Origin: a virus
DNA: 57,029 nucleotides
Reading direction: 5' to 3' (one strand)
IMG/VR virus record: IMGVR_UViG_3300018017_000001
The position numbers and the translations under genes are program-made. Position 1 is the stretch's first letter. The number at the start of each line of letters is the position of its first letter. The notes beneath the pieces are model-generated. The model worked only from the letters and a program-made list of their open reading frames with translations, had not been told where the DNA came from and did no database searches. Positions 1 to 57,029 of this stretch are shown here, in pieces.

Positions 1-123
1 GTTCTCGCATTCGATTCTGGCCCGATACTTCACAATCACCTTTCGTTCTCCTTCACCTTTCAATTGAGTTAGCATCTGTTCACTCCTTCTCCGGCGCTGG
101 GGACGCCCGCCAATTCCCCTGGA
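1..123. repeat. Direct terminal repeat, left copy (identical to 56907..57029)
   Basis: Read directly: the 123 nt gttctcgcattcgattctgg...caattcccctgga occur at both ends. 1..75 duplicates the 5' end of the minus-strand gene 56484..56981. Confidence 0.95.
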
Positions 124-15726: not shown

Positions 15727-16358
15727 GAACAATTATCTGCGCCAACTCACTGGAATGGCTGCCTGCTCATCGGAATCAGGGTGCGATCATCACAAGCCTT
15801 CCCGATGCGGCAGAACTGAAGCTGAACTTGCAAGATTACAAAGCATGGATTCAGCGGGCGGCCCGCGAATGTCTATTATCCGCCAGCGAGAATTGTCCTG
15901 TTATATTTTTGCAATCTGATCGGAAATGCAGCGGCAAGTGGCTGAGTAAGGTGGTGCTTATTTGCAATCTTGCCGAAGAGATGGGCTGGTTTCTTGTGTG
16001 GCATAAAATCGAATTGCGACGTGGAGTTGGGAAGTGCGATCTGTTTCGTCCCGCTTATCGTCACCTGCTCTGCTTCGGATCGGGAACGGTAACAAGCGGA
16101 ACATCCACACCAGACGTAATTGACGTAAGCCACGCATTCTATGAAATGGGCTGCGGCATCGCCGCTGCCGAAGTGGCTGTCAAGTTTTGCCTGCAATATA
16201 CGAACAAGATTATCGACCCATTTTGCGGCAGAGGCACAATTCCATTTGTTGCGGAGAATCAAGGTGCCGAGGTAATCGGCATTGATATTGACGAAGAATG
16301 TGCCGAAGCATCGAGCACAGCCTCGCCAATCGAACGAGAGTTTAGTTTCAATGATTGA
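15723..16358 (+). CDS. Second methyltransferase-like protein with non-canonical motif IV
   Basis: Start at MRTIICANS (ATGA overlap). N-terminal AIITSLPD stands where beta-class enzymes have (D/S)PPY. C-terminal SAM motif IIDPFCGRGTIPFVAENQGAEVIGIDID. Confidence 0.55.
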   Translation: MRTIICANSLEWLPAHRNQGAIITSLPDAAELKLNLQDYKAWIQRAARECLLSASENCPVIFLQSDRKCSGKWLSKVVLICNLAEEMGWFLVWHKIELRRGVGKCDLFRPAYRHLLCFGSGTVTSGTSTPDVIDVSHAFYEMGCGIAAAEVAVKFCLQYTNKIIDPFCGRGTIPFVAENQGAEVIGIDIDEECAEASSTASPIEREFSFND

Positions 16359-16656
16359 AGTTACCAAAGACGGGCGCACCAAGAGAACCGGCAAGGATTA
16401 CACCGAGTTCCGTCTCGCGCTTTACAAGTTGCAGTCGGCTCGGTGCTTTCAGTGCGGGCGGTGGACGTTCTTGCTGCATCCGATTGAGTGGGATGATTCC
16501 TTCCATGTGGATCATGCGGATGGCCGGGGCATTGGTGGTTCAAAGCGAGATGACACTTTCCGGGCTTGTCACGGACTATGCGGCAAGTGCCATCGAATCA
16601 AACATCACCAGCAGATGCCCGAGACTTCAAAAAAGGACTTGGAGAAGAAACCATGA
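16351..16656 (+). CDS. HNH endonuclease
   Basis: Start at MIEVTKDG. CFQCG...HVDHADGRG...CHGLCGKCHRIKH. Confidence 0.65.
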   Translation: MIEVTKDGRTKRTGKDYTEFRLALYKLQSARCFQCGRWTFLLHPIEWDDSFHVDHADGRGIGGSKRDDTFRACHGLCGKCHRIKHHQQMPETSKKDLEKKP

Positions 16657-17108: not shown

Positions 17109-17486
17109 ATGCCGCGAGCCGCTCTCTTTTCTCGGAACCAATCTCCTGAAGACAAACCAGCCCACTATCTCTCCCGCAAGTTCATTCCCTTCCTGCTCGC
17201 TCTCAAGATAGACGGCGTCGCTGCTGCCGTAGCGCTCGGCCCGAACAAACTCCAACTGAACACAGACGAGCCCTGGATTCAAACGAAGCGCAGATTCTTG
17301 TTCTCGCAAGCTTGCATAGCGATTAAGGTCGTTCCGAAGCCGGAACTCTGCAGCCCGAACGAATCTCTCGATCTCGCATATCCGGAACCGCTTCGCGTGA
17401 CGGTGCACAATCCCCATCCCGGGTTCCTAGCTGCTTGCCAGAAGGCTCGGGCTGCAAATTTGCAGGCGAAGGGCATGAATGGATGA
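17109..17486 (+). CDS. Uncertain ORF (125 aa); competes with antisense ORF 17064..17417
   Basis: No SD. It ends ..ARAANLQAKGMNG with the palindrome in the same frame (ANLQA) as in genes 14120 and 28104. The two candidates have similar GC3, so I cannot decide between them. Confidence 0.3.
   Translation: MPRAALFSRNQSPEDKPAHYLSRKFIPFLLALKIDGVAAAVALGPNKLQLNTDEPWIQTKRRFLFSQACIAIKVVPKPELCSPNESLDLAYPEPLRVTVHNPHPGFLAACQKARAANLQAKGMNG
17452..17465. promoter_or_regulatory. Perfect palindrome CTGCAAATTTGCAG
   Basis: It is followed by GCGAAGGGCATGA and then ATG 17479. Confidence 0.6.
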
Positions 17487-17877
17487 GCGCAGGCATCATC
17501 ACCACCACCACCATCACCATCTCGCAAGCATCAAAATCGCATTCTGGAGGCATCACCATATGGCAGAAGGACCAATCACTCTACAAGTAGGACAGAAAAC
17601 CGTCGCCAGCGTGGACGGATACGATCAGAACGGGCAACCGTTCCTCGGGCCGATTCCGGCCCCGTCGTGGAGCCTAGACCAACCAACTCTCGATTCGATC
17701 TCGGCCGACGCAGCGGCTCCTGCCGACGAAGACGTGACTTCGCTGGCTGCCGGCGTTGCGAACCTGACGGCAACAGTTCAAGGCCCGACCGGTCCACTGA
17801 CGGACACGGAGACGATCACGAATGTGCAGCCGCAGGTATTGACCTCGGTGAAAATAAACTTCTCAACTCCTCAATGA
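17479..17877 (+). CDS. Ig-like (Big_2-type) domain protein with N-terminal His9 tract
   Basis: 132 aa: MDERRHHHHHHHHHLASIKIAFWRHHHM then AEGPITLQVGQKTVASVDGYDQNG...VTSLAAGVANLTATV (Big_2-like). An alternative start is ATG 17559 (GGAGG SD). Confidence 0.55.
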   Translation: MDERRHHHHHHHHHLASIKIAFWRHHHMAEGPITLQVGQKTVASVDGYDQNGQPFLGPIPAPSWSLDQPTLDSISADAAAPADEDVTSLAAGVANLTATVQGPTGPLTDTETITNVQPQVLTSVKINFSTPQ

Positions 17878-18386
17878 ACGCGGACGAACAACTGAGGCGG
17901 GCGACAATCGTGACGCTGTGCCTGGCGTTATGTGTGTTGCTCGTCTTGCTGTTCACTCTGGCCCAGGCAGCGAGGTGCCAGGTAATTGAGAATCCGCAAC
18001 CGCGCTGCCAGACGGTCTCGATGGATGAGCAAGGAAAGTTGATTTACCAAGACATTCCTTGCAGTCAGGTTCCAAACTGGCGCGTGTTGAAGCTGGTACA
18101 GAGCCGCGTCACGTTCTGGACCATGCGGCCGAATCGAACAAACCGGCAGACGTTTACCAGCCCGTGGTTCTACGGAACTGAGGCCATCGCCTGGGGAACT
18201 GGCATCGCGACATATGAGCGTAGAGTTACGCTGTGGTCGAAAGCTGATGCCTTCATTCCGCTGGCCGCCATGACCGGCTTGCACTATGCGAGCGACCGTT
18301 GGATTGCGAGGTTCATCGGCGTCGCTGGCGCAGCGTCGGTGATCGGTATCAACACCGCAGGAATCGTGTCGAGGCATCCGCGATGA
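17874..18386 (+). CDS. Membrane or secreted hypothetical protein
   Basis: ATGA overlap. N-terminal hydrophobic anchor IVTLCLALCVLLVLLFTLAQA. 170 aa. Confidence 0.5.
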   Translation: MNADEQLRRATIVTLCLALCVLLVLLFTLAQAARCQVIENPQPRCQTVSMDEQGKLIYQDIPCSQVPNWRVLKLVQSRVTFWTMRPNRTNRQTFTSPWFYGTEAIAWGTGIATYERRVTLWSKADAFIPLAAMTGLHYASDRWIARFIGVAGAASVIGINTAGIVSRHPR

Positions 18387-18811
18387 GAGGCAAACCGCGA
18401 GACGGAAGCAAGGGCGGACGTCCGCGCAAGGGAAAGAACAAGATTGACCCTACGGTTGTTCCTGAAGAGCGACAAGTCTTCGAACTGGCGAAGCTGAGCA
18501 TGTCAGGAGAAGAAATAGCTTCGATTCTGGGACTTACACGTGATCGTCTCTACAAAGACGCTAACTTAAATACAGCTTTAAACAAAGGCCACCAGGAATG
18601 CAACGCCAGTCTGCGCAGAAAGCAGTACCAGGTCGCCATGCGCGGCAACGTTACGATGCTCATTTGGCTCGACAAGCAACGCCTCGGCGGCAAAGATAAG
18701 AGCGAGTTCGCCGGCCCGGACGGTGGACCGATTCCTTTGACTCTCGCCGCGAAGAAAGACGCGCTCGAAAGCATTCTTGAGCGCGTAGCTTCAAAGGCTC
18801 CTGCGCAATGA
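18383..18811 (+). CDS. terS: Terminase small subunit
   Basis: 142 aa. GGRPRKG..., HTH EIASILGLTRDRLY, then RGNVTMLIWLDKQRLGGKDK. This is the usual TerS pattern as I recall it. It lies immediately upstream of the TerL ATPase ORF. Confidence 0.7.
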   Translation: MRGKPRDGSKGGRPRKGKNKIDPTVVPEERQVFELAKLSMSGEEIASILGLTRDRLYKDANLNTALNKGHQECNASLRRKQYQVAMRGNVTMLIWLDKQRLGGKDKSEFAGPDGGPIPLTLAAKKDALESILERVASKAPAQ

Positions 18812-19536
18812 GTTGCAGCGTAATCCCAGTCGATCGTATCCGCCAACTGGTTCCGTACATGAGCCAGCGGGAGATCGATGCGGTCTCGCATCTCGTCGAA
18901 GGAATCAAACTCGAAGAGGAGCAAGAGTTACTCTGGAACAAGATGAGCGAGCGCGTGGCTTCTTGGGACGCCGGGCCGCTGCTCTGGCTTACGCACTACA
19001 CGAAGACCGAGGACACGCACTGGCTGACGAAGAACACGGCGTTCTTGGCGCCCTTCCCCAAGAAAGAATACCTCCGCGTCGTGCTCGACTACTTGATCAA
19101 CTCCCGCTCGATCTTCATTCCGAAGTCGCGAGAGATGATGATGTCGTGGCTCGTCTGCTCGTACATCGCGTGGATGTGCCAGTGGTATCCCGTCTTCTGG
19201 GTGGCGCAGACGGGAAAAGAGGACAAGGTCGCGGAGCTGATCGAATACGCCCGCACGCTCTATCGGAACCAGCCTGATTGGATGAAGGCTCGGAACCCGC
19301 TTGTGGTCGACAGCGTCTTAGAGATCGCGTGGAAGAACGGCGGCCGGTTCCTAGGCATTCCGAAGGGCGCAGATCAGATCAGGGTCTATCACTGCTACGG
19401 ATACTTCCAGGACGAGAGCGGCTTCCTGCCCGAAGCGCAGACTTCCTACGATGCTGTAAGGCCCGTCGCTAAGCAGATGGTGTGCGTCTCGACGGATGAG
19501 ATGGGGTGGTTCCACAGCGAGTGCAAACTGGATTAA
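18808..19536 (+). CDS. terL: Terminase large subunit, ATPase half only
   Basis: 242 aa. Walker-A-like IFIPKSREMMMSW, Walker-B-like YGYFQDESGF, coupling-like VCVSTDE. It stops 12 codons after that motif. Confidence 0.65.
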   Translation: MSCSVIPVDRIRQLVPYMSQREIDAVSHLVEGIKLEEEQELLWNKMSERVASWDAGPLLWLTHYTKTEDTHWLTKNTAFLAPFPKKEYLRVVLDYLINSRSIFIPKSREMMMSWLVCSYIAWMCQWYPVFWVAQTGKEDKVAELIEYARTLYRNQPDWMKARNPLVVDSVLEIAWKNGGRFLGIPKGADQIRVYHCYGYFQDESGFLPEAQTSYDAVRPVAKQMVCVSTDEMGWFHSECKLD

Positions 19537-19553
19537 ATGGAGGACTGTACGAT

Positions 19554-20171
19554 ATGAAGACGCTAAAAAGATTCCTTCCGACGATCTTGGGACTGCTCGT
19601 CATCGCTTCAGTAGCGACCTATTCAGTCATGGCCCAATGGGGTACACAAGGCGCCTACTACTCGATGGGCAGCGGCGGCTGGCAACTGAACTGCCCGCCT
19701 TCGTCCTGCTCGATCACGGGTACCGTTGCTAATTTCCCTGGATTGAGCGCGAAGAGCCAGTTAACGGCCAACAGCGCAGGGTCGAGCACGGCTGGCCTGA
19801 TCAACACAGGCATCTCATTCCCCATCGCCGCGAACGAAGTAGGCACGCTGAACTGCACGATCTATTTCACGAATGACAACGGTGGAGGTCTGACGCTGGC
19901 CGTGAACGGGCCAGGTACTCCGACCGAGGTGACGATCAGCGCGGAGATCGAATCCGCTGCCACGACGGGGAACTTGTACGTCAGTCAGGGAACTTCGTGG
20001 GCAACGGCCGTAGGAGCAGCGACGAGCAGCGTGACCGGCGCCCAGTACGCGCAGTTTTCCGGGGGAATCGAGAACGGAACCACTGCCGGGACTCTGGCTG
20101 TGCAATTCTCCGACGTGAACACGACTGGCACGACAACGGTTCTGCGGGACTCTTGGTGCAGCTTCCCATGA
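19554..20171 (+). CDS. Secreted beta-rich protein homologous to fibre C-terminal tip domains
   Basis: GGAGG SD. Signal peptide MKTLKRFLPTILGLLVIASVATYSVMA. The C-terminus ..GTLAVQFSDVNTTGTTTVLRDSWCSFP aligns by eye with ..GTVVSLQVIDPTVGDLLTIYRGAYCTVGPF of gene 50314. Confidence 0.6.
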   Translation: MKTLKRFLPTILGLLVIASVATYSVMAQWGTQGAYYSMGSGGWQLNCPPSSCSITGTVANFPGLSAKSQLTANSAGSSTAGLINTGISFPIAANEVGTLNCTIYFTNDNGGGLTLAVNGPGTPTEVTISAEIESAATTGNLYVSQGTSWATAVGAATSSVTGAQYAQFSGGIENGTTAGTLAVQFSDVNTTGTTTVLRDSWCSFP

Positions 20172-20683
20172 TCGACCGCTGCTTGTTCACTCCGAACGGT
20201 GACGATCCGCCTTGCGCGGTCCCGCTGACTGATTTATGTACGGTTCCGACTCCCGAAATGGCGTATCTCCTAGCCGACCTAGTCATCGGAGGACGAGCAG
20301 GCAGCCAGCTTGATCTGTTGGAGATTGGCACGGGAAGCGGATACGAAGCCGCGATCTTAGCGGAACAGTGCCGCAGCCTGGTGTCGATCGAAGTGAACAT
20401 GCTTCCTGAGACTGCAGCCAAGTTGTCGGAGAACGTGGCACTGATTCACGCGAACGGCTATGAGTTCGACACGCAGGGAGAGTTCGACGGCGTGCTGGTG
20501 ACCTTCGGCTCTCGCTCGATCTCACCCGTGTGGGCGAAGCAGGTGAAAGACGGCGGGCGGTTGGTGGTTCCACTGGTCAACGGGGAAGTCTCGCAGATCA
20601 GAGTTTACGAGCGTCGAGGTGACGTGCTGCATCTGCTGGAGATCGTAGGTTACGCAGAGTTCACGGAAGGAGTTCTAGCATGA
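20168..20683 (+). CDS. Protein-L-isoaspartate O-methyltransferase (PCMT)-like SAM methyltransferase
   Basis: ATGA overlap. LLEIGTGSGYEAAILA, SIEVN, DGVLVTFG, GGRLVVPL match the PCMT motif order as I recall it. Confidence 0.55.
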   Translation: MIDRCLFTPNGDDPPCAVPLTDLCTVPTPEMAYLLADLVIGGRAGSQLDLLEIGTGSGYEAAILAEQCRSLVSIEVNMLPETAAKLSENVALIHANGYEFDTQGEFDGVLVTFGSRSISPVWAKQVKDGGRLVVPLVNGEVSQIRVYERRGDVLHLLEIVGYAEFTEGVLA

Positions 20684-20946
20684 GCGAGAAAGTATCAGAA
20701 ACAATAACCCGCCGTCTTCATATGGCGCCTCGCCCCCAAATCGCGGTAGTTTTACACCTAGAAGGTCGCCAGTTGACCGTCGACTGCGATATTAACGATT
20801 CAATCTTCGAGATGCTTTCGGAGGAGAATGTCGCTAAGTGCAAAAATCAAATTATGGAGGGCATCTCGGTCGCGATAGATAATGCAATCAACAGTAAAGA
20901 TCGCAAGCAAATGTGTCGCCGTGTCGCTACAGTACTTCACTCATGA
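20680..20946 (+). CDS. Hypothetical protein
   Basis: 88-aa ORF with an ATGA overlap. Confidence 0.5.
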   Translation: MSEKVSETITRRLHMAPRPQIAVVLHLEGRQLTVDCDINDSIFEMLSEENVAKCKNQIMEGISVAIDNAINSKDRKQMCRRVATVLHS

Positions 20947-21605
20947 GCTTCGCTGATCCATCGCAGCATCATCATAAGCTGGCTGGCATGAAACGGGCAT
21001 TGGCGTCGAAAGACACTCCGGCGCATCTGAAACCGCATCTCGAAAGGCAAGTCGCACGTCTGGAGGGAACGATGAGAAACGTAAAGGGAGCACGGGTTGG
21101 GCAGCGCGGCAGCACGGGAATGGGAGGCTTGCCTCCGGCGAAAGCGATCGTCCGGGCCGTCGACCAGAACGACCGCCTGAACACGGCGAATCCGTACGAC
21201 GAGGAGTCGTTCACGGACAACAGCAATAACCAGGCGATTCCTGAGCCGGGCAGGGTGAACCCGAACGCGGCTGCTCTGGCGGCAGGCTCGGCAAGCCCGA
21301 ACCAGTATGCTCCCAGCCAGCAGGCTCGCGGGATGCAGCGAACGGAACGTGGGCCGGGAATCCATCCGAACGAGACGGCAGTGCGCAAGCTGCCCAGCGC
21401 TCCGGGGCTGAACCGGACCCTTGGAGCCGTGAGGCGCCCCGACACTTCCCGCCGCGGCCCCGGCTTGCTTCCTCGCGGGCCGAACGTGGCGCGTGCGGGC
21501 CAGCGTGGCGAAGGCATCAAGGCCGGCCTAAGTCCGAGCAAGACGGACCGCTGGCAGAGGAAAGGCAGCGCAAACCCAGCGTTCTACGGTGACTGGGGGC
21601 TGTGA
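20943..21605 (+). CDS. Basic low-complexity protein ending ..ANPAFYGDWGL
   Basis: Start at MSFADPSQ (ATGA overlap). 220 aa, rich in G, P, R, N and A. Confidence 0.5.
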   Translation: MSFADPSQHHHKLAGMKRALASKDTPAHLKPHLERQVARLEGTMRNVKGARVGQRGSTGMGGLPPAKAIVRAVDQNDRLNTANPYDEESFTDNSNNQAIPEPGRVNPNAAALAAGSASPNQYAPSQQARGMQRTERGPGIHPNETAVRKLPSAPGLNRTLGAVRRPDTSRRGPGLLPRGPNVARAGQRGEGIKAGLSPSKTDRWQRKGSANPAFYGDWGL

Positions 21606-21618
21606 TGTGTCGCGGCGC

Positions 21619-21795
21619 ATGTGCTCGGAGTGCGGCAAGCGTCCTGCTCAGGTCGGTGACGGTAACTGGCGCAGGAAGATGCCGGGCAAGGTGGCGAAGC
21701 AGCACGATCTGTGCCGGCAGTGTTGGCAGAGCGGTAACGATCAACAGCAAGGAGCGGAGGTGAAACATGGCGGAACTGACAGCGGGAGGTCATAA
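21619..21795 (+). CDS. Small zinc-ribbon protein
   Basis: MCSECGK...CRQCW. The start is uncertain (GTG alternatives upstream). It converges on the HNH gene with a 6-nt overlap. Confidence 0.35.
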   Translation: MCSECGKRPAQVGDGNWRRKMPGKVAKQHDLCRQCWQSGNDQQQGAEVKHGGTDSGRS

Positions 21796-22197
21796 GCTGG
21801 CTTTAGACTTACGCCAGAGCGCTGCTCTACTTATACCGGTGAACAATCCCTTATTCCACGCTGGACGAGGGTGAGCGTGCCGATGACAAAGAACGCAAAG
21901 AGTCTGCAGATTGGAAGGATCGTTATTCTTTCGATTCTTGTCTTTGTGGTGAACGTGCAATTTAGTCGTAGCTCCGCATTGTTCGCAGGCGGATTTTTTG
22001 TGCTTTCGGCAACTCGCTTCTCCTCCGTTCCAGTTAGGGTTATCCTGACCATACCGATGCAGTCCCGGCCTACCGACGTATGCAATAGCTTTCCATTCAG
22101 ACGAACACTTCCTAGAACAAAATACATCCCGGCCTCCAGCCAGTATCGAAGGGAAGGTTTTGAATTCCCGCTTACACCATTTGCAAGTAGTAGTCAT
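21790..22197 (-). CDS. HNH endonuclease, antisense to the surrounding operon
   Basis: CEQCGATTKLHVHHKDKNRKNNDPSNLQTLCVLCHRHAH. ATG at 22197 (MTTTCKWCK). It is the only clear minus-strand gene within the rightward (plus-strand) block 5790..55568. Confidence 0.75.
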   Translation of the reverse strand: MTTTCKWCKREFKTFPSILAGGRDVFCSRKCSSEWKAIAYVGRPGLHRYGQDNPNWNGGEASCRKHKKSACEQCGATTKLHVHHKDKNRKNNDPSNLQTLCVLCHRHAHPRPAWNKGLFTGISRAALWRKSKASL

Positions 22198-22207
22198 AAC
22201 GAGCAAT

Positions 22208-22236
22208 ACTGTATCACAAATGGGGAACTATGGCAA
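22208..22236 (-). promoter_or_regulatory. Candidate promoter for the antisense HNH gene (TTGCCA-N17-TACAGT)
   Basis: Read on the minus strand. The -35 overlaps the ATG of gene 22230. Confidence 0.35.
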
Positions 22237-22448
22237 AGCTAACAACAGAAGCAAGAAACAGACTCCCGGCGAAGGATTTTGCTGGCGCAGATCGGTCTTA
22301 TCCAATTCCCAACGCTTCGCATGCTAGAAATGCTCTGGCGCGCGTGAGTCAGCACGGAACACCTGCGGAGAAGTCACGCGTTCGCTCTGCCGTCCACAAG
22401 AAGTTCCCTGGAATAGGGAAGAACAAAGCCTTCTACGGCGGGGAGTAA
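22230..22448 (+). CDS. Small conserved phage protein ending ..KNKAFYGGE
   Basis: 72 aa. ..LPAKDFAGADRSYPIPNASHARNALARVSQHG.. resembles a widespread small DUF family. I am not sure of its name. Confidence 0.55.
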   Translation: MAKLTTEARNRLPAKDFAGADRSYPIPNASHARNALARVSQHGTPAEKSRVRSAVHKKFPGIGKNKAFYGGE

Positions 22449-22451
22449 GTT

Positions 22452-22628
22452 ATGCCTTGGAACCAAGTCATGTCGAAGTGGAAATCAGGCAGCCTGAAAT
22501 CTGGAGGTTCCGGTAAGCCGGTGAAGTCTCAGAAGCAGGCTGTGGCGATCATGCTCTCAGAAAAGCGCGCCGCTGGTTCCAAGCCGGAATACAGAGCATC
22601 GAAAAACAAAGCATTCTACGGAGGATGA
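22452..22628 (+). CDS. Small protein ending ..KNKAFYGG
   Basis: 58-aa ORF below the track cutoff, translated by hand. ..GSGKPVKSQKQAVAIMLSEKRAAG.. resembles another small DUF family. GGGGAG SD. Confidence 0.5.
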   Translation: MPWNQVMSKWKSGSLKSGGSGKPVKSQKQAVAIMLSEKRAAGSKPEYRASKNKAFYGG

Positions 22629-22630
22629 AC

Positions 22631-22828
22631 ATGGCGAAGTTGTCTGAGATCAAAGCGAAAGTCGAAGCGCTGCACGAAACGGATTACCAGGGTGCAGAGT
22701 TCACGATTCAGGGCAAGCATGTGAAGTCTGTGCTGCTCGACATCGTGAGTTACCTCGAATCCATCGACGGGACAGTTTCTCGGCGCGTGCCGCTCAGCGA
22801 AGTTTCCGAAGTATTCAACGATGTCTAG
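22631..22828 (+). CDS. Hypothetical small protein
   Basis: GGAGGA lies 5 nt before ATG 22631. 65 aa. Confidence 0.5.
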   Translation: MAKLSEIKAKVEALHETDYQGAEFTIQGKHVKSVLLDIVSYLESIDGTVSRRVPLSEVSEVFNDV

Positions 22829-23873
22829 TCTTGCTTTTCCGCATCCCGGCATCCGCGTTCACACGAACGACCACGGCATCACCGTTCTTCGTCTGCACTA
22901 CTCCGCTGACGAGGAGAAGGGCGGCGGGGAGAAGATTTACGTTCCCGAGATCAAGCGCTCGCTTTCGCCCTGGGCCTATGCACAATACAAGCAGATGACG
23001 GACCCGACTCTGTACTTGAAAGAGTACGAGATCGAGGCCGAAGCCGCGCTCGGTGCGCTGATCTACCAACTGGACGAGGAGGCCACGCTTGAAGACTCCT
23101 TCCCGATTCCGAGGACTTGGACGCGCAGGATGGCGCTCGATCCGCATCCTGGCATTCCTGACGCGTTTCTTTGGGTTGCAACCGATCCATGGGGTGACCG
23201 ATGGGCTTATCGAGAACTATGGCCATCGCGTGTCTGCTTTATTTGTGACCCGGAAACCAAGCAAGTGAGAGGCAAAGCAGGGCCGTGTCCGCCCGATGAT
23301 CCGCTGATCCCGATCAAACATTACGTCGAGACGATGAAGTGGCTCGAATCTTCCAGCAACCCGGAGAATCAGGACGAGAACAAGACGCCGTTCGACGAGC
23401 ACATCTTTGCCCGCGTCATCGACTACTCGGCCCGTGCGTTCGGCAAGGGAACGACGGACGATCCTGAACAGCCAAACTTCCAGCAACGCTACGAGCAGTA
23501 TATGCAACTGGAGAAGCTGTCTTGTCCGAGCTTCGACGACGCGAAGAAGGATCACGACGTGGGCTACGAGCGAGTGAACGCGGGACTGAAACCGCGCATG
23601 GTCCGCGATACGAACGGGGAGCCGAAGAAGCGCTCGCAGATTCACATCTTCCGCGACAAATGCCCTGAGTTGATCTATCAGTTGAAGAACGTGCGCAAGA
23701 AGATTCTGACGCCGACGCAGATGATGTCGCAAGACCCGAGCGGGCAGCAGGTTGCCGTGCGTTGTCATCAGGTCGACAACCTGCGCTACGTCGAGATGGC
23801 GAATCCCATCTACATCAACCCGCATCCGCAGCGCTCGCACTTCGAGCCGCTGCAGGAAGGGTTCAGCTACTAG
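22821..23873 (+). CDS. terL: Terminase large subunit, C-terminal (lid plus nuclease) half only
   Basis: 350 aa. ITVLRLHYSADEEKG, YLKEYEIEAEAA, nuclease Asp motifs MALDPHPGIPDAFLWVATDPWGD, ARVIDYSARAF, HQVDNLRYVE. No Walker A or B seen. Confidence 0.65.
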   Translation: MSSLAFPHPGIRVHTNDHGITVLRLHYSADEEKGGGEKIYVPEIKRSLSPWAYAQYKQMTDPTLYLKEYEIEAEAALGALIYQLDEEATLEDSFPIPRTWTRRMALDPHPGIPDAFLWVATDPWGDRWAYRELWPSRVCFICDPETKQVRGKAGPCPPDDPLIPIKHYVETMKWLESSSNPENQDENKTPFDEHIFARVIDYSARAFGKGTTDDPEQPNFQQRYEQYMQLEKLSCPSFDDAKKDHDVGYERVNAGLKPRMVRDTNGEPKKRSQIHIFRDKCPELIYQLKNVRKKILTPTQMMSQDPSGQQVAVRCHQVDNLRYVEMANPIYINPHPQRSHFEPLQEGFSY

Positions 23874-23874
23874 C

Positions 23875-26103
23875 ATGGCCACGACGAATCCAGCGATCGG
23901 TCCCGTTTCGGACATCATCATGCGCCGGGACGAGTGCAAGAAGTGGATGAACCTGAACTACTGGGCCGAGTGGGTCGACACTTGGCGCGCGATCAAGTGC
24001 AGAACGCGTCCGATCTACGAGCGGGACTCGGCGGGGAAAGAAACGAACGTCGAGGACAAGTCTCGCACGAACGTCGAGAGCGGGCTGGCGAACCTGATCT
24101 ACCGCAAGAACGTGGCGCGACTTTCCGCGCAGCCTTACACGCTGCGCGTGAGCGGAGGCCAAGATCCGAGTGTTGGCGCCAGACTGAGTGCGTTGCTCTC
24201 GAAGCAGTACGAAAACTCGCAGGAGCAGCCCGAAGATCAGCGGGTCAGGATGGCCGCGGAAGCGCTCGGCATCGGCATCTCGAAAATCTACTGGGACTTC
24301 ATCTCGCGCACGATGGTGTTCAGGAAGGCGATCCTGAAAGAAGGCAAAGTCGTCTACCGCGACCGAGCCTCGATGATGCGCGCCCGGAAAGCTCCCGACG
24401 CCGAGATTCAGCAGGCCGTCGAAGAGCACAGCGCGAACATGACGGACGAGGAAGTGCAGGAGTTCATGGGCAAGAGCGGGACGGAGTTGACGGTCCCCGA
24501 AGAGATCAAGAAGTACGAAGGCCCGCGCGTGATGTGCTGCTTCCCCGGAGACGTGTTCTGGGAGCCGTTCGCCAAGACCCTGTTTCAATCTTCGTTCGCG
24601 ATTCACAGCTACCGCGAGTCCGACCTCTGGCTGAAGAAGATGCTCGGGCTAAAGTACAAAGACCCGGAGACGGGCGAAGATACGCCGGCGTTCGATCCCG
24701 AAGCGGTTGCGAATCTGATGCGTCTTGATCCTGAGCCGGTCGTCGTCAAGGGCGAGTTCCAGGAGTTGAAAGATTTGTTCCGTACCGCCGTCGGGAAGCA
24801 GGATCAGGTGATGTATCAGTTCCCGCGGAACCTACGCGTGCGGAAGCTGTACGACATCCTCGAAGAGCACAAGCAGGACGATGACGGACGGATGTGGATC
24901 ACCTGGGTGAACGAGAACTACCGCGATAAGGTGCTGGGGAAGATGCCGTACCCGGTAAACTTCTACGGGCACACGTCGTTCACCGACGAAGTTCCGCTGC
25001 CTGACCTGATCGACGCGATCGGGGATTCCACTCCCCGCCTGCTGCGCTACATGTTCTCGATGTTCAACCTGCAGATGGCGCAGAACTTCGACTACATCAC
25101 GAACCTGATCCGCGTAACGTTCCTCGCAAAGACTGGAGTCGAGTTCGACACCGACCGCCTGTTGAGCGGGTTCTTCAACGTGCTCAGAACGTCGGACTTG
25201 AACGGCTGCAAGTTCGTGGAGCGTCCGCCTCTGCCGCCCGGAGCGATGGAGCGCGGTGCGCTGCTGATGCAGTTGATCGGGATGTTCGAGCCGTCGTTGA
25301 ACCTGACGACGGAAGGAACGGAAGCGAACCCGCAGGCCGGTAAAACGGCGACAACTGCGGTTCTGGCAGCGAAGGCTGCGGACGTGCTGCTGGCGATGAA
25401 GATGGACGGTCGGAACCTGTATCTTCGTCAGCTTGGCATGAAGAAAATCTGGATGAATCAGCAGATGGCTGACCTCGACCAGCCGTGGAGCGTGGAGTCC
25501 AAGTATTTCACTTCTCCGCTGCAATCGCTGCTGAAGACTCAGGACAAAGCCCAGCAGGTTCCCTGGATCATGACGGATCAGACGGGGAAGATCAGCAGCG
25601 TGAAGCTCGATCCGAACGAGATACAGCAGGACTTCGACGTAGAGCCGGACGCGGGTTCGTACATGGCGGTGAACGACGACCTGAAGCGTCAGGCGGCCGC
25701 GCAGCTCGGTCAGATCGCGATGCAGGCGCCGGGGATTCTCGATCCTCAGAAAGTGATGATGAACTTGCTGAAGACGATTCCGAACCTCGACGGCGAGCCG
25801 GAGTCGTACTTCCTGCCACCTCCTGATCCTTCGGCTCCGCCTCAGCCGCAGAAGTACAACGTGACGGCTTCGATCTCGATCCCGCTCGACAAGATGGAGC
25901 CCGAGATTCAGCAGTACATGCTGACGAAGTACCTCGGCGCTCCCGAGATGCCTGGGCTGGAAGATCAAAGCCAGTTGAACCTCGTGGGTAGGGTTAGCGA
26001 AGCGGCTAATCATGCGGACAACCTGCTTTCGCCTTCAGCGGCATCACAGCCGCAGAACGGGAACAAGACGCCCGTAGGAATAGCGGAGAGCACGGCCGGA
26101 TGA
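23875..26103 (+). CDS. Portal protein (by position and size)
   Basis: Start at MATTNPAIG. 742 aa, immediately after TerL-C and followed by scaffold-like and capsid genes. No motif-level proof. Confidence 0.55.
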   Translation: MATTNPAIGPVSDIIMRRDECKKWMNLNYWAEWVDTWRAIKCRTRPIYERDSAGKETNVEDKSRTNVESGLANLIYRKNVARLSAQPYTLRVSGGQDPSVGARLSALLSKQYENSQEQPEDQRVRMAAEALGIGISKIYWDFISRTMVFRKAILKEGKVVYRDRASMMRARKAPDAEIQQAVEEHSANMTDEEVQEFMGKSGTELTVPEEIKKYEGPRVMCCFPGDVFWEPFAKTLFQSSFAIHSYRESDLWLKKMLGLKYKDPETGEDTPAFDPEAVANLMRLDPEPVVVKGEFQELKDLFRTAVGKQDQVMYQFPRNLRVRKLYDILEEHKQDDDGRMWITWVNENYRDKVLGKMPYPVNFYGHTSFTDEVPLPDLIDAIGDSTPRLLRYMFSMFNLQMAQNFDYITNLIRVTFLAKTGVEFDTDRLLSGFFNVLRTSDLNGCKFVERPPLPPGAMERGALLMQLIGMFEPSLNLTTEGTEANPQAGKTATTAVLAAKAADVLLAMKMDGRNLYLRQLGMKKIWMNQQMADLDQPWSVESKYFTSPLQSLLKTQDKAQQVPWIMTDQTGKISSVKLDPNEIQQDFDVEPDAGSYMAVNDDLKRQAAAQLGQIAMQAPGILDPQKVMMNLLKTIPNLDGEPESYFLPPPDPSAPPQPQKYNVTASISIPLDKMEPEIQQYMLTKYLGAPEMPGLEDQSQLNLVGRVSEAANHADNLLSPSAASQPQNGNKTPVGIAESTAG

Positions 26104-29935: not shown

Positions 29936-30346
29936 ATGATCTGCCGGGGATGCGGCGCGGAAGCTCGGCGCACGGTGACTGTGCTCGACGCCCGCGCCGA
30001 CGTGCTGAAGGAATCCTGCGAGCATTGCGACCCGCAGCACGAGCGTTTCCGCGATCCTTCCGACCGGCGTCTTTGGGACAGCTACGAGGTCGAGCCTGAC
30101 CGCTACTATCCCAAAGACTCGAACGGAGTCGCCCGGGCGAAGGACGAACTCGTGCAGGACACGCTCGACGGGCTGAACAACAACGGGAAGTCCGACGACG
30201 AGTGGATGATCGCGAAACGCAAGAACCGCAGGACCGAACCGCTCTCGCCCGAGGAGATCAGGGCGACAGAAAACTTCGTGCGCGAGCATTTGATCCCGCA
30301 GATCGAGCGGGCGAAACTGAACGAGCAGTACCAGCACCAGGAATGA
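29936..30346 (+). CDS. Hypothetical protein with CxxC...CxxC
   Basis: 136 aa. The ATG directly follows the upstream stop. Confidence 0.5.
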   Translation: MICRGCGAEARRTVTVLDARADVLKESCEHCDPQHERFRDPSDRRLWDSYEVEPDRYYPKDSNGVARAKDELVQDTLDGLNNNGKSDDEWMIAKRKNRRTEPLSPEEIRATENFVREHLIPQIERAKLNEQYQHQE

Positions 30347-32055
30347 CTCAGAAGTCCGACCATTTCGCCGACCTCGTCAGCGCTGAGTTGAAGCGCGTCA
30401 AGGACTTGAACCCTCTCGACGTGCTTCATCACCAGAAGAAACTGGAGAAGATGTTCAACACTGCCGAAGGCCAAGAGGCTTTCCGCAGGGTCACCGGCTT
30501 GCGCGATGCGACGTTCGTAAACCACGATCTTTCGCCGCAGCAGAAACTTCCCATCGTTGCTCTGCTGATGCCTTCCTACAAGCGTCCGGCTCCGCAATGC
30601 TGGGCTGCTCTGCAGCAGATGATCGCGGCCAGTCAAGGGCATTGCCAGTTGTACATGGAGCCTACGATTCAGCAGTCCATCGTTCACTGGACAAGGAACT
30701 ATGCCGTCAGCAGTCTGATCAAGACAGGGAAGCCGTGGGATTACATTCTGTTCATGGACGACGACATGGTTCCACAACCCGACACGCTGATCAAGTTGCT
30801 GGCCCACAAGAAAGACGTGGTGGCGGCCGCCTGTACTGTTCGCGTCGACCCTCCGGTACCGAATTTCCGCGTCTATGATCCGGACGAGCAGGTTTTCTTC
30901 ACTTGCATGGAATGGGACCGGGAAGGTTTGGTTGGCGGGAAAGAGTTTGGCGGCGGCACTGGCGTGATCCTGCTTTCGCGGGAAGCGATGACCCGCGTTG
31001 GCGAGTATTACATCAACTGCAAGTACGAGCAGAAGTATTACGGCTTTTCAGGTGAAGCTCTCGACAAACTCCAGACCCGCAGGCAGGGTGAAGCGCGGAA
31101 GACGAACGACTTCTGGTGGTTCGAGTTCCTGAAGCAACCACAAGGCCGAGGAGAGTTCGGAGAGGATATTTCCTTCTGCTTCAAATGCATCGAGCTGGGC
31201 ATTCCGGTGTTCGTCGACACGACGGTCACACCCGGCCACGTCGGTGACTACGCATACTCTCTCGCGGACTTCTATGACTACCGCGACGTTCTGCTGGAGC
31301 GGGACAAGCGCAGCGCGGAAGGCACTCATCAGGCAGCGATGCGGGAAGCAAAATACACGGCGAAGATCAGCATCCTGTTCCCCACGCGCAACCGTCTCGG
31401 AAACGTCGCCCGCCTGCTTGAATCCCTGAAGGCAACGTCTTTCCGCCTGCCGGAAGTCGTGCTGTACATAGACGAGGATGACAACTCCTATCAGGCGCTG
31501 TACGCCGACAGTCCGGAGAACGTGAAGTTCGTTCGCGGTCCAAGGAAGACGCTCTCTGAATGCTGGAATGATTGCGTGAAGGTGGCGTCGGGCGAGATTC
31601 TGATGGCTGGAGGAGATGACCTGATCTTCAGGACGAACGGGTGGGACGAGATCGTCGCGAAGTGCTTCGAGAACCACGCTGATAAGCTGATTCTCGTTCA
31701 TGGCAACGATGGCTATTGGAAAGAGAAGTTCGGCACGCATCCATTCCTTCACCGCCAGTGGGTGGAAGCGGTGGGCTATTTCTTCCCGCCGTATTTCTCT
31801 TCCGACTTCAACGACACATGGCTGAACGAGGTCGCGAACGAGCTTGGGCGTCGAGTCTACCTGCCGTTCCTCACGGAACACATGCACCCGCTATGGGGCA
31901 AAGCCGATTGGGACGAGACGCACAAAGAACGCCTTGCTCGGCACGACCGGGACAAAGTCGAGGAGCTGTACAAGTCTCTCGCCCCGCGCCGTGCCGAGGA
32001 CGTTCAGAAATTACGGCAGGCGATTGAGGCGAAGAGAATCGCACTGGTTGGATAA
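30343..32055 (+). CDS. Two-domain GT-A (family-2-like) glycosyltransferase
   Basis: Start at MTQKSDHF (ATGA overlap). Domain 1: VALLMPSYKR..ILFMDDDM..GEDISFCFKC. Domain 2: ISILFPTRNR..VLYIDEDDN..GGDDLIF. 570 aa. Confidence 0.65.
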   Translation: MTQKSDHFADLVSAELKRVKDLNPLDVLHHQKKLEKMFNTAEGQEAFRRVTGLRDATFVNHDLSPQQKLPIVALLMPSYKRPAPQCWAALQQMIAASQGHCQLYMEPTIQQSIVHWTRNYAVSSLIKTGKPWDYILFMDDDMVPQPDTLIKLLAHKKDVVAAACTVRVDPPVPNFRVYDPDEQVFFTCMEWDREGLVGGKEFGGGTGVILLSREAMTRVGEYYINCKYEQKYYGFSGEALDKLQTRRQGEARKTNDFWWFEFLKQPQGRGEFGEDISFCFKCIELGIPVFVDTTVTPGHVGDYAYSLADFYDYRDVLLERDKRSAEGTHQAAMREAKYTAKISILFPTRNRLGNVARLLESLKATSFRLPEVVLYIDEDDNSYQALYADSPENVKFVRGPRKTLSECWNDCVKVASGEILMAGGDDLIFRTNGWDEIVAKCFENHADKLILVHGNDGYWKEKFGTHPFLHRQWVEAVGYFFPPYFSSDFNDTWLNEVANELGRRVYLPFLTEHMHPLWGKADWDETHKERLARHDRDKVEELYKSLAPRRAEDVQKLRQAIEAKRIALVG

Positions 32056-32592
32056 ATGTCAGTCCTAGAACAACGGCTCCCTTGGAATTTCATCCCCGCC
32101 GATGGCATCGGGTATGTGAATAGCGAAGACTTCCTGACTTGGCCGGACGGTGTCGTGCTGCACTTTATCCGAACATTTGAGACGCATAGATATCAGAGTT
32201 GGCGAAACTTCAATAATCTCTGGCGCTCAACTCTGGGGCTAGACAGCACACATGGTAAGCGCGTGAAAGACTTCGGATGTGGATTCGGGATCGAAGCTCT
32301 GCAATTTGCCAAGAGCGGGAACGAAGTCCTCTTGTCCGATATTTTCCCTTCTAACGTGCAGGCGGCAGAACGAGTGCTTAGGCTCTCTGGTTACACACCT
32401 GCCCCTGATGGTCCGGTGGATGTGTTCTATTCCAATGGGGTACTTCATCACTCGCCGCAGATGCGAGAACTTCTAGAGAAAGAAGTCGCCAACTTAAATC
32501 CAGGAGGAGAAGTCAGATTGTTGCTCTATTCTGACCGGGCATGGATTCTTACGACAGCAACCAGAGTTCCGCCTATCGAGGACGATGTCTAA
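32056..32592 (+). CDS. Class I SAM-dependent methyltransferase, terminated by an in-frame TAA
   Basis: VKDFGCGFGIEALQFA, LLSDI, FYSNGVLHH, LNPGGEVRLL. The same frame continues after TAA 32590..32592 (see next feature). Confidence 0.6.
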   Translation: MSVLEQRLPWNFIPADGIGYVNSEDFLTWPDGVVLHFIRTFETHRYQSWRNFNNLWRSTLGLDSTHGKRVKDFGCGFGIEALQFAKSGNEVLLSDIFPSNVQAAERVLRLSGYTPAPDGPVDVFYSNGVLHHSPQMRELLEKEVANLNPGGEVRLLLYSDRAWILTTATRVPPIEDDV

Positions 32593-32766
32593 ACACATCC
32601 TGCCTTCAGGCAATTCGTCGCGCAGATGGATGATGTCGGAGAGTACGCGGACTGGTACAGCCGCGAGAAACTGGAATACCGAGTTAAAGATTTACTGACA
32701 GTGAAAGAGTTCAATTACATCACGCTGGACGGACGCTATGCCACGGCTATTCTGGAGCCTGTCTAG
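32593..32766 (+). other. In-frame continuation of the methyltransferase ORF after the TAA
   Basis: It translates to THPAFRQFVAQMDDVGEYADWYSREKLEYRVKDLLTVKEFNYITLDGRYATAILEPV. Its TAG overlaps the GTG start of the next gene by 1 nt (TAGTG), which is the coupling pattern typical of this genome. Confidence 0.5.
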
Positions 32767-34130
32767 TGGCTAAGGTCTGCCTGCTCGACTCCCCCAGCTG
32801 GCTGCTTTTCAACCCGCTCAGCTTCCTCCACCTCGGGGCGCTCTATTTGGCCGGTTCGTTGCGCGAAGCAGGCCACGACGTTCGCGTGCTCGACTGCCAC
32901 CAGATCACGAGCTGGAACCGAGAGAAGAAAGAACTCATCATCCACCACGAGATGCTGGAGCCGTGCGACGTTCTCGGCGTCTCCGCGACGACGGCAAACG
33001 TGCATTGGGGAAAGCAGTTGGCGAAGGCGTGGCCCGCGAAAGTGAAAGTTCTCGGCGGATCTCACGCGTCCTACATCGTCAACGGACCACATCAGCAGTT
33101 CAAGCGGGCAAGCTACTTCGACGGATTCGACTTCCTGATGGTGAACGAGTCGGAGCATTCCTTCGCGGAGTTCTGCGGCCGCTGGGACCGAGGCGACGTT
33201 TCCGGGACTCCGAACCTGTGCTGGTTCAACGCGCTCGGGATGCTTCAGCAAAACCCTTGCTCGCCGCTTCCTGACGTGAATGCTCTGCCCGGTCCTGCGT
33301 TCGATCTGTGGCCGACGCCATTCTATCGCGGAAGGTTCACGACGAAGGATTACGACGGGCAAGGCGGACAGGGGATGACGGCGCAGTTGTTCTCGGCCCG
33401 CGGGTGTCCTTACGGATGCAGGTTCTGCGCCGACGCGCGGACGAAGATCAGGGAAGAAAGTTTCGAGCAGATCGAGAAGCAGGCAAAACAACTGGCATCT
33501 CTCGGAGTTTCTTGCCTTCGCATCTACGACGACGTGTTCACGATCAAAGCGGACCGCTGCCGCAGGATCGCCGACATCCTAGCGGACTACGGCATCTGGT
33601 TCCGGGGCAACACTCGCGTGAACTTGACTGACCGCAGCTTGTTCGAATATCTCGCCAGCAAGGGATGCGTCGAGATGGGGTTCGGCGTCGAGCATGGTTC
33701 GGCCCGGATGCTGAAGGCGATGGACAAGGGCACGACGCCGGAGAAGAACACGGAAGGCGTCAAGATGTGCCAGGACGCGGGCATGATCGCGAAGGCTTAT
33801 CTCATGGCTGGATTTCCGGGTGAGACGCTGGAGTCGCTCGACGAACTGGAGGCATGGATGCTTAATGCGCGTCCGGACGCGGTTAGTTGGAACTTGTTCC
33901 AGCCGTATCCAGGATCGGACGTTTGGATTCATCCTGAGCGCTATGGAGTGACTCTGCCGCCGAACGCTTTCGAGAAGTTCTGGCAGACCGGAGACGAAGT
34001 GACGGAAGAGTCTGTCTATCTTGATCTGCCGACGATAGGAAAAGCGGATTTAGTGCGGCGCTTCGGAGAGATCGCTCGCGTGATCGACACGGAAATTCAG
34101 CACAGAGATCGTTCGATGGTGATGGCGTGA
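32766..34130 (+). CDS. B12-binding-domain radical SAM enzyme
   Basis: 454 aa with a GTG start. N-terminal Rossmann-like B12-type domain. SARGCPYGCRFCAD is the CxxxCxxC cluster motif. Confidence 0.75.
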   Translation: MAKVCLLDSPSWLLFNPLSFLHLGALYLAGSLREAGHDVRVLDCHQITSWNREKKELIIHHEMLEPCDVLGVSATTANVHWGKQLAKAWPAKVKVLGGSHASYIVNGPHQQFKRASYFDGFDFLMVNESEHSFAEFCGRWDRGDVSGTPNLCWFNALGMLQQNPCSPLPDVNALPGPAFDLWPTPFYRGRFTTKDYDGQGGQGMTAQLFSARGCPYGCRFCADARTKIREESFEQIEKQAKQLASLGVSCLRIYDDVFTIKADRCRRIADILADYGIWFRGNTRVNLTDRSLFEYLASKGCVEMGFGVEHGSARMLKAMDKGTTPEKNTEGVKMCQDAGMIAKAYLMAGFPGETLESLDELEAWMLNARPDAVSWNLFQPYPGSDVWIHPERYGVTLPPNAFEKFWQTGDEVTEESVYLDLPTIGKADLVRRFGEIARVIDTEIQHRDRSMVMA

Positions 34131-34140
34131 AGGAGGGCGA

Positions 34141-56483: not shown

Positions 56484-56981
56484 CTACTTTCCCTCCGGCG
56501 CTGGGGACGCCCAACTAGATAATTGCTTAGCAAGATCACTGGCTTGTTCCTGCGTAACGTAAACCGTTCCCGAATCCCCGCAGTCCATGCGGATTCCGAT
56601 TACATGAGGCTCCTCGCCGTCTTCCATGAGCCAAATGTGGTCCGTGCATTTTCCTTGCAAATGCAACTGGCCGGTGATATCGAGTTCTCGCCACTCCAAA
56701 AACATATGGTGGTTGCCTTCGCCTAATGTATGTTTCCCCGGTGCGGGACAGTGGCCTTCCGGCACCTGCGGTTTGCATTCGCCACAAGTGAACACATCGG
56801 TGTCGGACGACCAAGAGCAATCATCTCGACCATAGGCATGAGACTTCGGATTGTTCCTGTAGTTCGTGAGCAGAAACGTATAGCGATAAACGGCAGGCTC
56901 GCCACAGTTCTCGCATTCGATTCTGGCCCGATACTTCACAATCACCTTTCGTTCTCCTTCACCTTTCAATTGAGTTAGCAT
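56484..56981 (-). CDS. Cys-rich hypothetical early protein ending ..WASPAPEGK
   Basis: 165 aa with several CxxC pairs. Its start lies inside the terminal repeat (equivalent to position 75). Confidence 0.6.
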   Translation of the reverse strand: MLTQLKGEGERKVIVKYRARIECENCGEPAVYRYTFLLTNYRNNPKSHAYGRDDCSWSSDTDVFTCGECKPQVPEGHCPAPGKHTLGEGNHHMFLEWRELDITGQLHLQGKCTDHIWLMEDGEEPHVIGIRMDCGDSGTVYVTQEQASDLAKQLSSWASPAPEGK

Positions 56982-57029
56982 CTGTTCACTCCTTCTCCGG
57001 CGCTGGGGACGCCCGCCAATTCCCCTGGA
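56907..57029. repeat. Direct terminal repeat, right copy
   Basis: Identical to 1..123. This implies a circular or terminally redundant genome of 56,906 unique bp. Confidence 0.95.

Follow-up and report, generated by a model that had tools for sequence, protein, structure and literature searches.

Two separated genes encode the large terminase in a lineage of soil phages and probably yield a two-protein packaging motor

The large terminase subunit (TerL) is a hallmark enzyme of tailed phages and herpesviruses, and to our knowledge it is a single two-domain protein in all structural and mechanistic models. The herpesvirus homologue, pUL15, is encoded by two exons with the unrelated genes UL16 and UL17 between them, and nuclear mRNA splicing yields one polypeptide. 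Here, we describe a viral DNA stretch of 57,029 nucleotides (nt) (IMG/VR record IMGVR_UViG_3300018017_000001; "the window" below means this whole stretch), in which TerL is encoded by two open reading frames (ORFs) that lie 3,284 nt apart. We call them TerL-N, the ATPase core, and TerL-C, which holds two β-strands, the lid, and the nuclease. We conclude that the phage probably makes its large terminase from two polypeptides, as a heterodimeric TerL derived from a "gene in pieces."

Interrupted terL genes have been described in Jug phages, Bastillevirinae, and crAss-like phages, where they are split by group I introns or inteins (PMC12880540, PMC11878797) and appear as two or more ORF fragments, possibly with endonuclease genes between them (PMC12880540). 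In full-text searches, we found no published split terL that lacked an intron or an intein. Ribonucleotide reductase of Aeromonas phage Aeh1 is encoded by a "gene in pieces," NrdA-a and NrdA-b, which arose by insertion of the homing endonuclease gene mobE; its products come together again with neither RNA nor protein splicing and with no rearrangement of the DNA, and their new terminal tails are essential (PMC3045599). The term "fractured genes" has been applied to phage enzyme genes broken by split inteins, the two halves being separated by the gene of a free-standing endonuclease (PMC2677866).

The two terminase genes and the site of the break

The packaging module of the window contains the two TerL genes and the genes that adjoin them:

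18383..18811, plus strand: TerS-like small terminase gene (phrog_309, E = 4.7e-7; no NCBIfam match; start refined to the ATG at 18383)
18808..19536, plus strand: TerL-N, ATPase core, 242 amino acids (aa) (fold, motifs, family profile)
22821..23873, plus strand: TerL-C, two N-terminal strands, lid, and nuclease, 350 aa (fold, invariant residues, alignment with one-piece proteins)
23875..26103, plus strand: portal protein of the SU10 type (Pfam SU10_portal, E = 1.3e-8; phrog_1216; start refined)

This position, in the packaging module and beside TerS and the portal gene, is typical of TerL. The stop codon of the TerS-like gene and the start codon of TerL-N share a 4-nt overlap, and the portal gene starts at a spacing of 2 nt from the TerL-C stop. 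Nine ORFs occupy positions 19537-22820 between the halves; all are on the plus strand except for an antisense HNH endonuclease gene. Unlike a TerL made as a single polypeptide, the halves are thus two ORFs with their own stop and start codons. The first 123 nt of the window (1-123) recur at its end (56907-57029), so we take the contig to be a complete circular assembly of ∼56.9 kb. It carries full head and replication modules, and among the other large ORFs scanned in this complete genome there was no second TerL. The genes from TerS to the portal are all on one strand except for the HNH gene, five of their junctions overlap by 4 to 8 nt, the other gaps are ≤30 nt, and no convincing terminator was found in the block (6 terminator-like matches versus 6.0 expected). 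Because of this shared strand, tight packing, and lack of a convincing terminator, a single packaging operon is most likely, in which these genes would be cotranscribed.

TerL-N carries the ATPase motifs of a terminase. Its Walker A motif, IFIPKSREMMMSW, is deviant: the Lys comes first in the motif, and the canonical P-loop positions lack Gly-Lys. The motif residues are K106-S-R108-E-M-M-M-S113 in the window and K-S-R-E-M-M-x-S in the family, with K106 and R108 invariant in our alignment of 61 homologues; we take this form to resemble the lambda gpA type. Walker B is YGYFQDESGF, whose D202 and E203 are present in at least 90% of the 61 sequences and invariant in two wider alignments, and motif C is VCVSTDE (S228-T229), with S228 invariant in the 61 homologues. 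The AlphaFold2 model of TerL-N had a predicted local distance difference test score (pLDDT) of 95, and all 18 Foldseek matches to it in the PDB at E ≤ 0.001 were TerL structures. T4 gp17 came first (E = 3.8e-10; root mean square deviation of 2.4 Å over 189 columns), followed in order by T7, P74-26, HK97, Sf6, PhiV-1, and D6E. The family profile places Walker A on residues 160-167 of T4 gp17, Walker B on D255-E256, and motif C on T285-T287. TerL-N is thus an N-terminal ATPase of the additional strand, conserved glutamate (ASCE) fold, with Walker A, the Walker B catalytic Glu, and motif C, as in TerL. Database searches with the sequence gave weak matches to TerL in PHROGs (E of about 4e-3), none in Pfam, NCBIfam, or PADLOC, and, among GenBank phages, one distant one-piece TerL (MW202803; 24% identity).

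TerL-C begins with strands at residues 11-25, continues with lid helices at about residues 31-89 and an RNase H-like nuclease from about residue 100, and ends in a conserved G-x-x-Y at the extreme C terminus. The acidic residues D107 (LDPHP), D201 (VIDY), and D319 (VDNLRY) are invariant in an alignment of 57 homologues, and TerL-C thus has the RNase H/RuvC-like nuclease with conserved acidic residues that is characteristic of TerL. Its AlphaFold2 model (pLDDT of 88) matched the nuclease of P22 TerL (E = 3.7e-7; template modeling [TM] score of 0.72) and full-length D6E TerL (E of about 1e-6). Because the D6E alignment spans ∼280 columns, covering lid and nuclease, TerL-C is more than a nuclease domain alone; the best matches in BFVD, a collection of predicted viral structures, were likewise full-length TerLs, over 300 to 350 columns. 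No match to TerL-C was found in Pfam, NCBIfam, PHROGs, PADLOC, or GenBank phages.

The original prediction, made from the letters of the DNA alone, had read TerL ATPase motifs in the first ORF and a lid and RNase H-fold nuclease in the second. Fold comparison and residue conservation confirm both readings, and the coordinates and lengths that it gave for the two ORFs, the overlap with TerS, the size and ORF content of the gap, and the placement of TerL-C directly before the portal gene all proved correct.

The break was located by alignment with intact TerLs, as the prediction had proposed. An exhaustive HMMER search with the N-half profile gave 2,601 relatives; among the best 150, about 25 were one-piece proteins of 504 to 628 aa, and each of these has the C-half profile after the N-half profile within one chain. 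In one such protein, P0357, for which NCBIfam gave no match, the N-half profile aligns with residues 7-198 and that of the C-half with residues 228-535 (E = 4e-59). The joint alignment showed that the N-half of the window stops right past a conserved helix (..SSA.PGWF..), extending ∼10 residues beyond the GWF motif, and that the C-half begins just upstream of G..v.R...G..V.RLHY.ADP, with ∼9 residues ahead of the conserved hairpin. Between these two boundaries, one-piece proteins have a variable loop of 5 to 60 residues, and nothing is missing at the junction. Compared side by side at this point, a one-piece form has the sequence ..GPGWFADFVNDCSSAPTHIARGLTQRRT.., and an adjacent split form has ..GPGWFADFVTDEL and a stop codon, then MNSKGLKTRRT... 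By the joint profile, the break falls near residue 301 of T4 gp17, and the C-part corresponds to residues 193-416 of D6E TerL. Subdomain I of gp17 extends up to residue 313, with the lid at 314-360. The break thus lies within the ATPase domain, where the nucleotide-binding core meets the final hairpin and the lid, and not at the ATPase-nuclease hinge. The original prediction had described a split into an ATPase gene and a nuclease gene: the two TerL genes are real, but the cut falls after motif C, inside the ATPase domain, as its mention of a lid segment had partly anticipated.

The lengths of the family proteins are bimodal. Among 80 representatives spanning the full N-half, 53 terminate at most 40 aa from the N-half end, whereas 22 are one-piece proteins. 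Gene order in the one-piece relatives is ordinary (TerS, TerL, a small gene, and the portal gene), and one of them, L050, has an SU10-type capsid gene downstream, as does the window.

Another relative, P0380 (490 aa), has ∼260 residues inserted between the Walker B region and motif C: positions 47-191 of the N-half profile match its residues 37-184, and positions 193-229 match residues 447-486. The insertion could be an intein.

Conservation of the split and its explanation

We collected 38 nonredundant loci of the window clade, down to about 36 to 40% identity. At all 38, the halves are separate ORFs on the same strand, with a gap of 1,224 to 5,594 nt (median, 2,520 nt); fused or adjacent halves were found at none of them. 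Nearly all close homologues are about the size of the query, mostly 220 to 265 aa for the N-half and 305 to 365 aa for the C-half. Searching from the C-half side gave 60 IMG/VR loci, of which the 51 newly fetched ones were analyzed: the N-half lay upstream in every analyzed locus with more than about 4.2 kb of upstream DNA, and host DNA was not found upstream of any C-half. The pairwise identities of the two halves across loci were correlated (r = 0.86, a value reached in 0 of 2,000 Mantel permutations), and the median ratio of nonsynonymous to synonymous substitution rates (dN/dS), at a dS close to saturation, was 0.29 (N-half) and 0.28 (C-half). Together, these results indicate that the split is old and under selection and that the halves are coevolving.

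All 10 matches in a species-representative genome collection were metagenome-assembled genomes (MAGs) of Acidobacteriota (Terriglobia). Four of the 10 lie on contigs of 0.67 to 0.93 Mb, and locus L001 lies on an ENA contig of 2.35 Mb; of these five large-contig loci, L001 and L051 hold both halves and look like integrated prophages. Many of the soil phage relatives with a split TerL infect Acidobacteriota. One N-half in an Acidobacteriaceae MAG (L060, 7725-8749, on a 785-kb contig) is spread over two overlapping frames and looks like a frameshifted pseudogene in a decaying prophage.

Intermediate arrangements came from a sister clade retrieved from soil metagenomes. The family-wide alignment A4 proved too varied to derive patterns from, and the subclade alignment A5 was used in its place; 80 loci were kept of 430 confirmed candidates, with the following arrangements:

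4 loci: one-piece gene
19 loci: adjacent genes
14 loci: gap of 125 to 5,450 nt
16 loci: no C-half in the rest of the contig
27 loci: contig ends too soon to classify

The adjacent genes are joined by ATGA, GTGA, TGATG, or TAATG overlaps or by short spacers ahead of an ATG, and some have a GGAGG ribosome-binding site directly after the stop codon. One locus, L064, was considered as a satellite lacking the C-half and rejected, as its C-half begins at the stop codon of the N-half. The likely path led from a one-piece gene to adjacent, coupled genes and then to a junction filled with accessory genes, and changes of state occurred more than once; a neighbor-joining tree of representatives was too weakly resolved for counting transitions, and the locus survey is the better evidence.

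At L113 (1580-2260), a 226-aa ORF beginning MAIDCDGTIYCLAEYYQPG.. lies ∼0.3 kb downstream of the N-half. It resembles a terminase nuclease strand motif of a different type, without the lid part, and may be a replaced or truncated C-half.

How two chains could make one terminase follows from the division of the domains. TerL-N would bind and hydrolyze ATP through its deviant Walker A, its Walker B catalytic Glu, and the coupling motif C, and TerL-C would supply the next two β-strands, the lid covering the nucleotide, the nuclease for cutting concatemers, and the tail at the C terminus, the part that docks on the portal in other terminases. The cut lies in a short, indel-tolerant surface loop just past motif C. 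The chains probably reassociate through the native core/lid interface, and the resulting heterodimer would oligomerize on the portal like an ordinary TerL. Historically, a one-piece gene would have become two adjacent, translationally coupled genes, whose junction was later colonized by accessory genes; in the window clade, this junction is always at least 1.2 kb long and includes a universal gene. The original prediction had left open whether the motor is assembled from two polypeptides or a mobile cassette has broken the gene. The one-piece relatives, the conserved and coevolving split, the lack of a splicing element, and the lack of another TerL support the former.

Several points weigh against a two-protein terminase. 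We infer the binding of the halves to each other, from their coevolution, as well as their activity, and the evidence for cotranscription of their genes consists of gene packing and a number of terminator-like matches no higher than expected by chance. A cut that parts the lid from the ATPase core is unexpected in mechanical terms, since lid movement is believed to transmit force. Introns that are unusual or very long can escape Rfam, and the near saturation of dS makes the dN/dS values rough. Finally, N-halves that stand in chromosomes without a C-half imply that TerL-N may have roles beyond a strict heterodimer.

Could the two ORFs instead be exons or exteins of one gene, a full TerL being restored by group I or group II intron splicing or by a split intein? 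Splicing is the only published mechanism that we found for a split terL (PMC12880540, PMC11878797), and homing-type endonucleases are present in some gaps. However, an Rfam scan of positions 18000-24500 at E ≤ 10 returned no intron and two chance-level nonintron matches, no Rfam family reached its gathering score at nine related loci, and the gap, 1.2 to 5.6 kb long, holds several conserved same-strand protein genes and varies in content. Sister lineages, moreover, have plain overlapping stop and start codons between the halves. There is also no room for the halves of a split intein, because TerL-N ends ∼10 residues past GWF and TerL-C starts ∼9 residues before the hairpin, and neither half has any Pfam match. 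The original prediction, which had seen no intein blocks or intron-like structure, was right on this point, and we consider splicing very unlikely. An intact terL might also be rebuilt at the DNA level, if the cassette were excised during lytic growth in the style of the skin or nifD elements; in some Acidobacteriota chromosomes (L055, L056), the N-half is directly followed by an integrase gene and a tRNA gene. Yet neither the gap of the window nor any IMG/VR gap examined contains a recombinase, no direct repeats flank the cassette, all assembled phage contigs retain it, and the in-frame stop codon would need to be removed as well, which leaves excision highly improbable.

The gene might simply be broken, with the phage being defective or in decay and an inserted cassette having inactivated its terminase. 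The antisense HNH gene in the gap would fit such an event, as would the chromosomal relatives that are remnants, including L060 with its frameshifted N-half. This reading has hardly any probability left when set against a split kept in at least 38 divergent loci with intact ORFs, conserved catalytic residues, and dN/dS of about 0.3, a complete circular genome of 56.9 kb with full head and replication modules, and a TerL-N protein cluster recorded on 14 contigs from several public sources. The mobile cassette of the original prediction accordingly fails both as a loss of function and as a recent event, the block being syntenic down to about 36 to 40% identity and containing a universal gene. 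It is decidedly unlikely, too, that the halves form no stable TerL unit, TerL-N being a stand-alone ATPase like phi29 gp16 and TerL-C a separately recruited maturation nuclease. Packaging ATPases without an active nuclease do exist (phi29 gp16), and so do orphan N-half genes without a C-half, but TerL-C holds the lid and the strands after motif C, which are parts of the ATPase domain in one-piece relatives, and the halves coevolve tightly. The C-half always occurs with the N-half in phage contigs followed far enough, and the N-half likewise with the C-half, chromosomal and unclassifiable loci aside. As for a chimeric contig joining two phages inside terL, we found nothing in its favor. It is argued against because L010, an independent IMG/VR assembly from another sample, has the identical arrangement, with halves 3,287 nt apart; dozens of ENA, JGI, Logan, and NCBI assemblies also show the same split with a cassette, and we regard the probability of an artifact as negligible.

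The cassette between the halves and the orphan ATPase genes

The cassette of the window comprises the following ORFs:

19554..20171, plus strand: first cassette gene, signal-peptide protein, 205 aa (ORF; GGAGG ribosome-binding site)
20168..20683, plus strand: PCMT-like methyltransferase, 171 aa (Pfam PCMT, E = 1.1e-13)
20680..20946, plus strand: 88-aa protein (ORF; no Pfam or PHROG match)
20943..21605, plus strand: universal gap protein, 220 aa (conserved N-terminal motif; C-terminal ..AFYGD tail)
21619..21795, plus strand: Cys-rich, zinc-ribbon-like ORF, 58 aa
21790..22206, minus strand: HNH endonuclease, antisense, a variable passenger (phrog_1271, E = 6e-19; Pfam HNH, E = 8e-6)
22230..22448, plus strand: DUF6582-like protein, 72 aa, ending ..KNKAFYGGE (phrog_16160, E = 4e-20)
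22452..22628, plus strand: DUF6496 protein, 58 aa, ending ..KNKAFYGG (Pfam DUF6496, E = 5e-11)
22625..22828, plus strand: 67-aa protein, whose stop overlaps the TerL-C start by 8 nt (ORF)

The universal gap protein, of low complexity and encoded by G+C-rich DNA, lies between the halves at all 38 loci of the window clade. It is absent from the one-piece locus L050, was not detected in the more distant split loci L183-L197, and has no match in Pfam, PHROG, NCBIfam, or PADLOC. The PCMT-like gene is present in the gap at 24 of the 38 loci. The smallest cassettes consist of these two genes, at times with one small extra ORF, and larger gaps add epimerase-, glycosyltransferase-, methyltransferase-, and histidine-phosphatase-like genes. 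L001 and L003 have proteins of 204 to 207 aa at the place of the signal-peptide protein, likened to it by size and position only; for the window protein itself, no family match was found, including in NCBIfam. Endonuclease genes are sporadic: L003 has an HNH gene on the plus strand and L005 an Endonuclease VII gene, the gap of L001 has no endonuclease-domain gene, the ORFs listed for the minimal-cassette loci include no obvious endonuclease, and the adjacent-split lineages have no intervening gene at all. The junction between the TerL halves has become a landing pad, or insertion hotspot, for accessory genes.

Several unrelated gap proteins, as well as the universal one, share an extreme C-terminal tail made of a basic stretch followed by (A/S)(F/L)(Y/F)G(E/D/G). 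Within the window genome, this tail occurs only on three gap ORFs (20943-21605, 22230-22448, and 22452-22628), and it is also found in gap proteins of L001, L005, L012, L015, L017, L032, L034, and other loci. It might serve as a docking peptide, as a targeting signal, or as a site of modification. The AFYG-tailed proteins, the universal one among them, have their genes only between the two halves, often next to a PCMT-like gene, and might conceivably be additional components or clients of the two-piece motor. Subthreshold NCBIfam matches link the PCMT-like protein to isoaspartate, FxLD, and ATP-grasp (graspetide) methyltransferases; one possibility is that the enzyme modifies the neighboring ..FYGE and ..FYGD tails. 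The methyltransferase and the antisense HNH endonuclease had both been recognized in the original prediction. Of its three small proteins with a shared C-terminal motif, the motif is real, but one protein has 220 aa and is not small; similarly, the promoter-like site that it assigned to the HNH gene exists but is at chance level (1 found versus 2.1 expected).

Elsewhere in the window, a second HNH-type ORF (16282-16656, plus strand), read by eye from its motifs HVDH..CH..CH..KHH, lies ∼1.7 kb upstream of TerS; in some phages, HNH proteins encoded next to the terminase assist in cos cleavage. An ORF at 17479-17877 (plus strand), just upstream of the packaging genes, opens with nine consecutive histidines (MDERRHHHHHHHHHL..). 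Downstream of the capsid gene, the window carries genes of the glycosyltransferase, B12/radical-SAM, and UDP-glucose dehydrogenase types (30202-35415), and relatives have similar sugar-modifying genes (epimerase, glycosyltransferase, and methyltransferase) in the terminase gap (L012, L021, and L023) or directly after the N-half (L061, 2692-5547).

Some Acidobacteriota chromosomes carry orphan pairs, each a small gene in the TerS position and an intact TerL-N with all catalytic motifs and the usual end, and no C-half was found within 2 to 8 kb of them:

L123, 6454-7612: between fatty-acid oxidation genes and a GMC oxidoreductase gene
L095, 6312-7657: beside heme-synthesis genes
L058, 7325-8606
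L055, 7490-11677: beside an integrase gene and a tRNA gene
L056, 1925-4335: beside an integrase gene and a tRNA gene, with tRNA-Thr(cgt) adjoining
L053, 3270-8633: beside an integrase gene and a tRNA gene
L100, 3262-4944: beside a tRNA gene alone, tRNA-Thr(cgt)

PADLOC gave no match for these pairs, and the genes flanking the integrase-associated ones include tRNAs for Pro or Arg. L055 and L056 also suggested a prophage attachment site inside the gap. This idea found no support: there were no att repeats, the nine IMG/VR loci with the largest gaps showed no integrase-like ORF (judged from ORF termini only), and no C-half followed host DNA.

The orphan pairs may be remnants, satellites, or interference modules. 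They could be minimal satellites that borrow the TerL-C and portal-docking half of a helper phage to package their own DNA, or domesticated modules that interfere with packaging by poisoning the motor of an incoming phage. More broadly, the split may have made the terminase modular, with this modularity being exploited by the orphan pairs and the gap proteins, but we consider this unlikely.

Significance and comparison with known systems

By separating core and lid, nature has set up a test of how force is transmitted: should the heterodimer package DNA, the two would not need to be covalently linked. The series of one-piece, adjacent, and gapped genes documents how an essential gene becomes a "gene in pieces" and how the break turns into an insertion hotspot. 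The split TerL is widespread yet escapes recognition by Pfam, NCBIfam, and PADLOC, which makes it relevant both to research on packaging motors and to viromics. Because the halves lack Pfam and NCBIfam matches and have only a weak PHROG match, the group, which consists of abundant soil phages that infect Acidobacteriota, is likely to be missed or misplaced when virus detection, completeness estimates, and phylogenies rely on TerL.

The halves of the window share with one-piece TerLs (T4 gp17, D6E, P22, and HK97) the ASCE ATPase, the lid, the acidic triad of the RNase H-like nuclease, and the position between TerS and the portal gene; they differ in the cut inside ATPase subdomain I, the 3.3 kb of other genes between them, and the deviant Walker A. 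In the intron- and intein-containing terL genes, the fragments are rejoined by splicing, whereas the window has a syntenic cassette of several genes and no detectable ribozyme or intein. Fractured genes need N- and C-intein halves, for which the ends of the window ORFs leave no room. Like pUL15, the TerL of the window comes in two blocks; unlike for pUL15, no splicing mechanism is available or detectable. We regard the ribonucleotide reductase "gene in pieces" of Aeh1 as the closest documented parallel. In both cases, the gene of an essential enzyme is split in two, and the gap of the window, too, holds an endonuclease gene, of the HNH type. The Aeh1 insert is one endonuclease gene, whereas the gap here contains up to nine genes, with an endonuclease gene only sporadically among them. 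The terminase halves also differ from the Aeh1 products in having no sizeable new tails, and their split spans a large, old clade.

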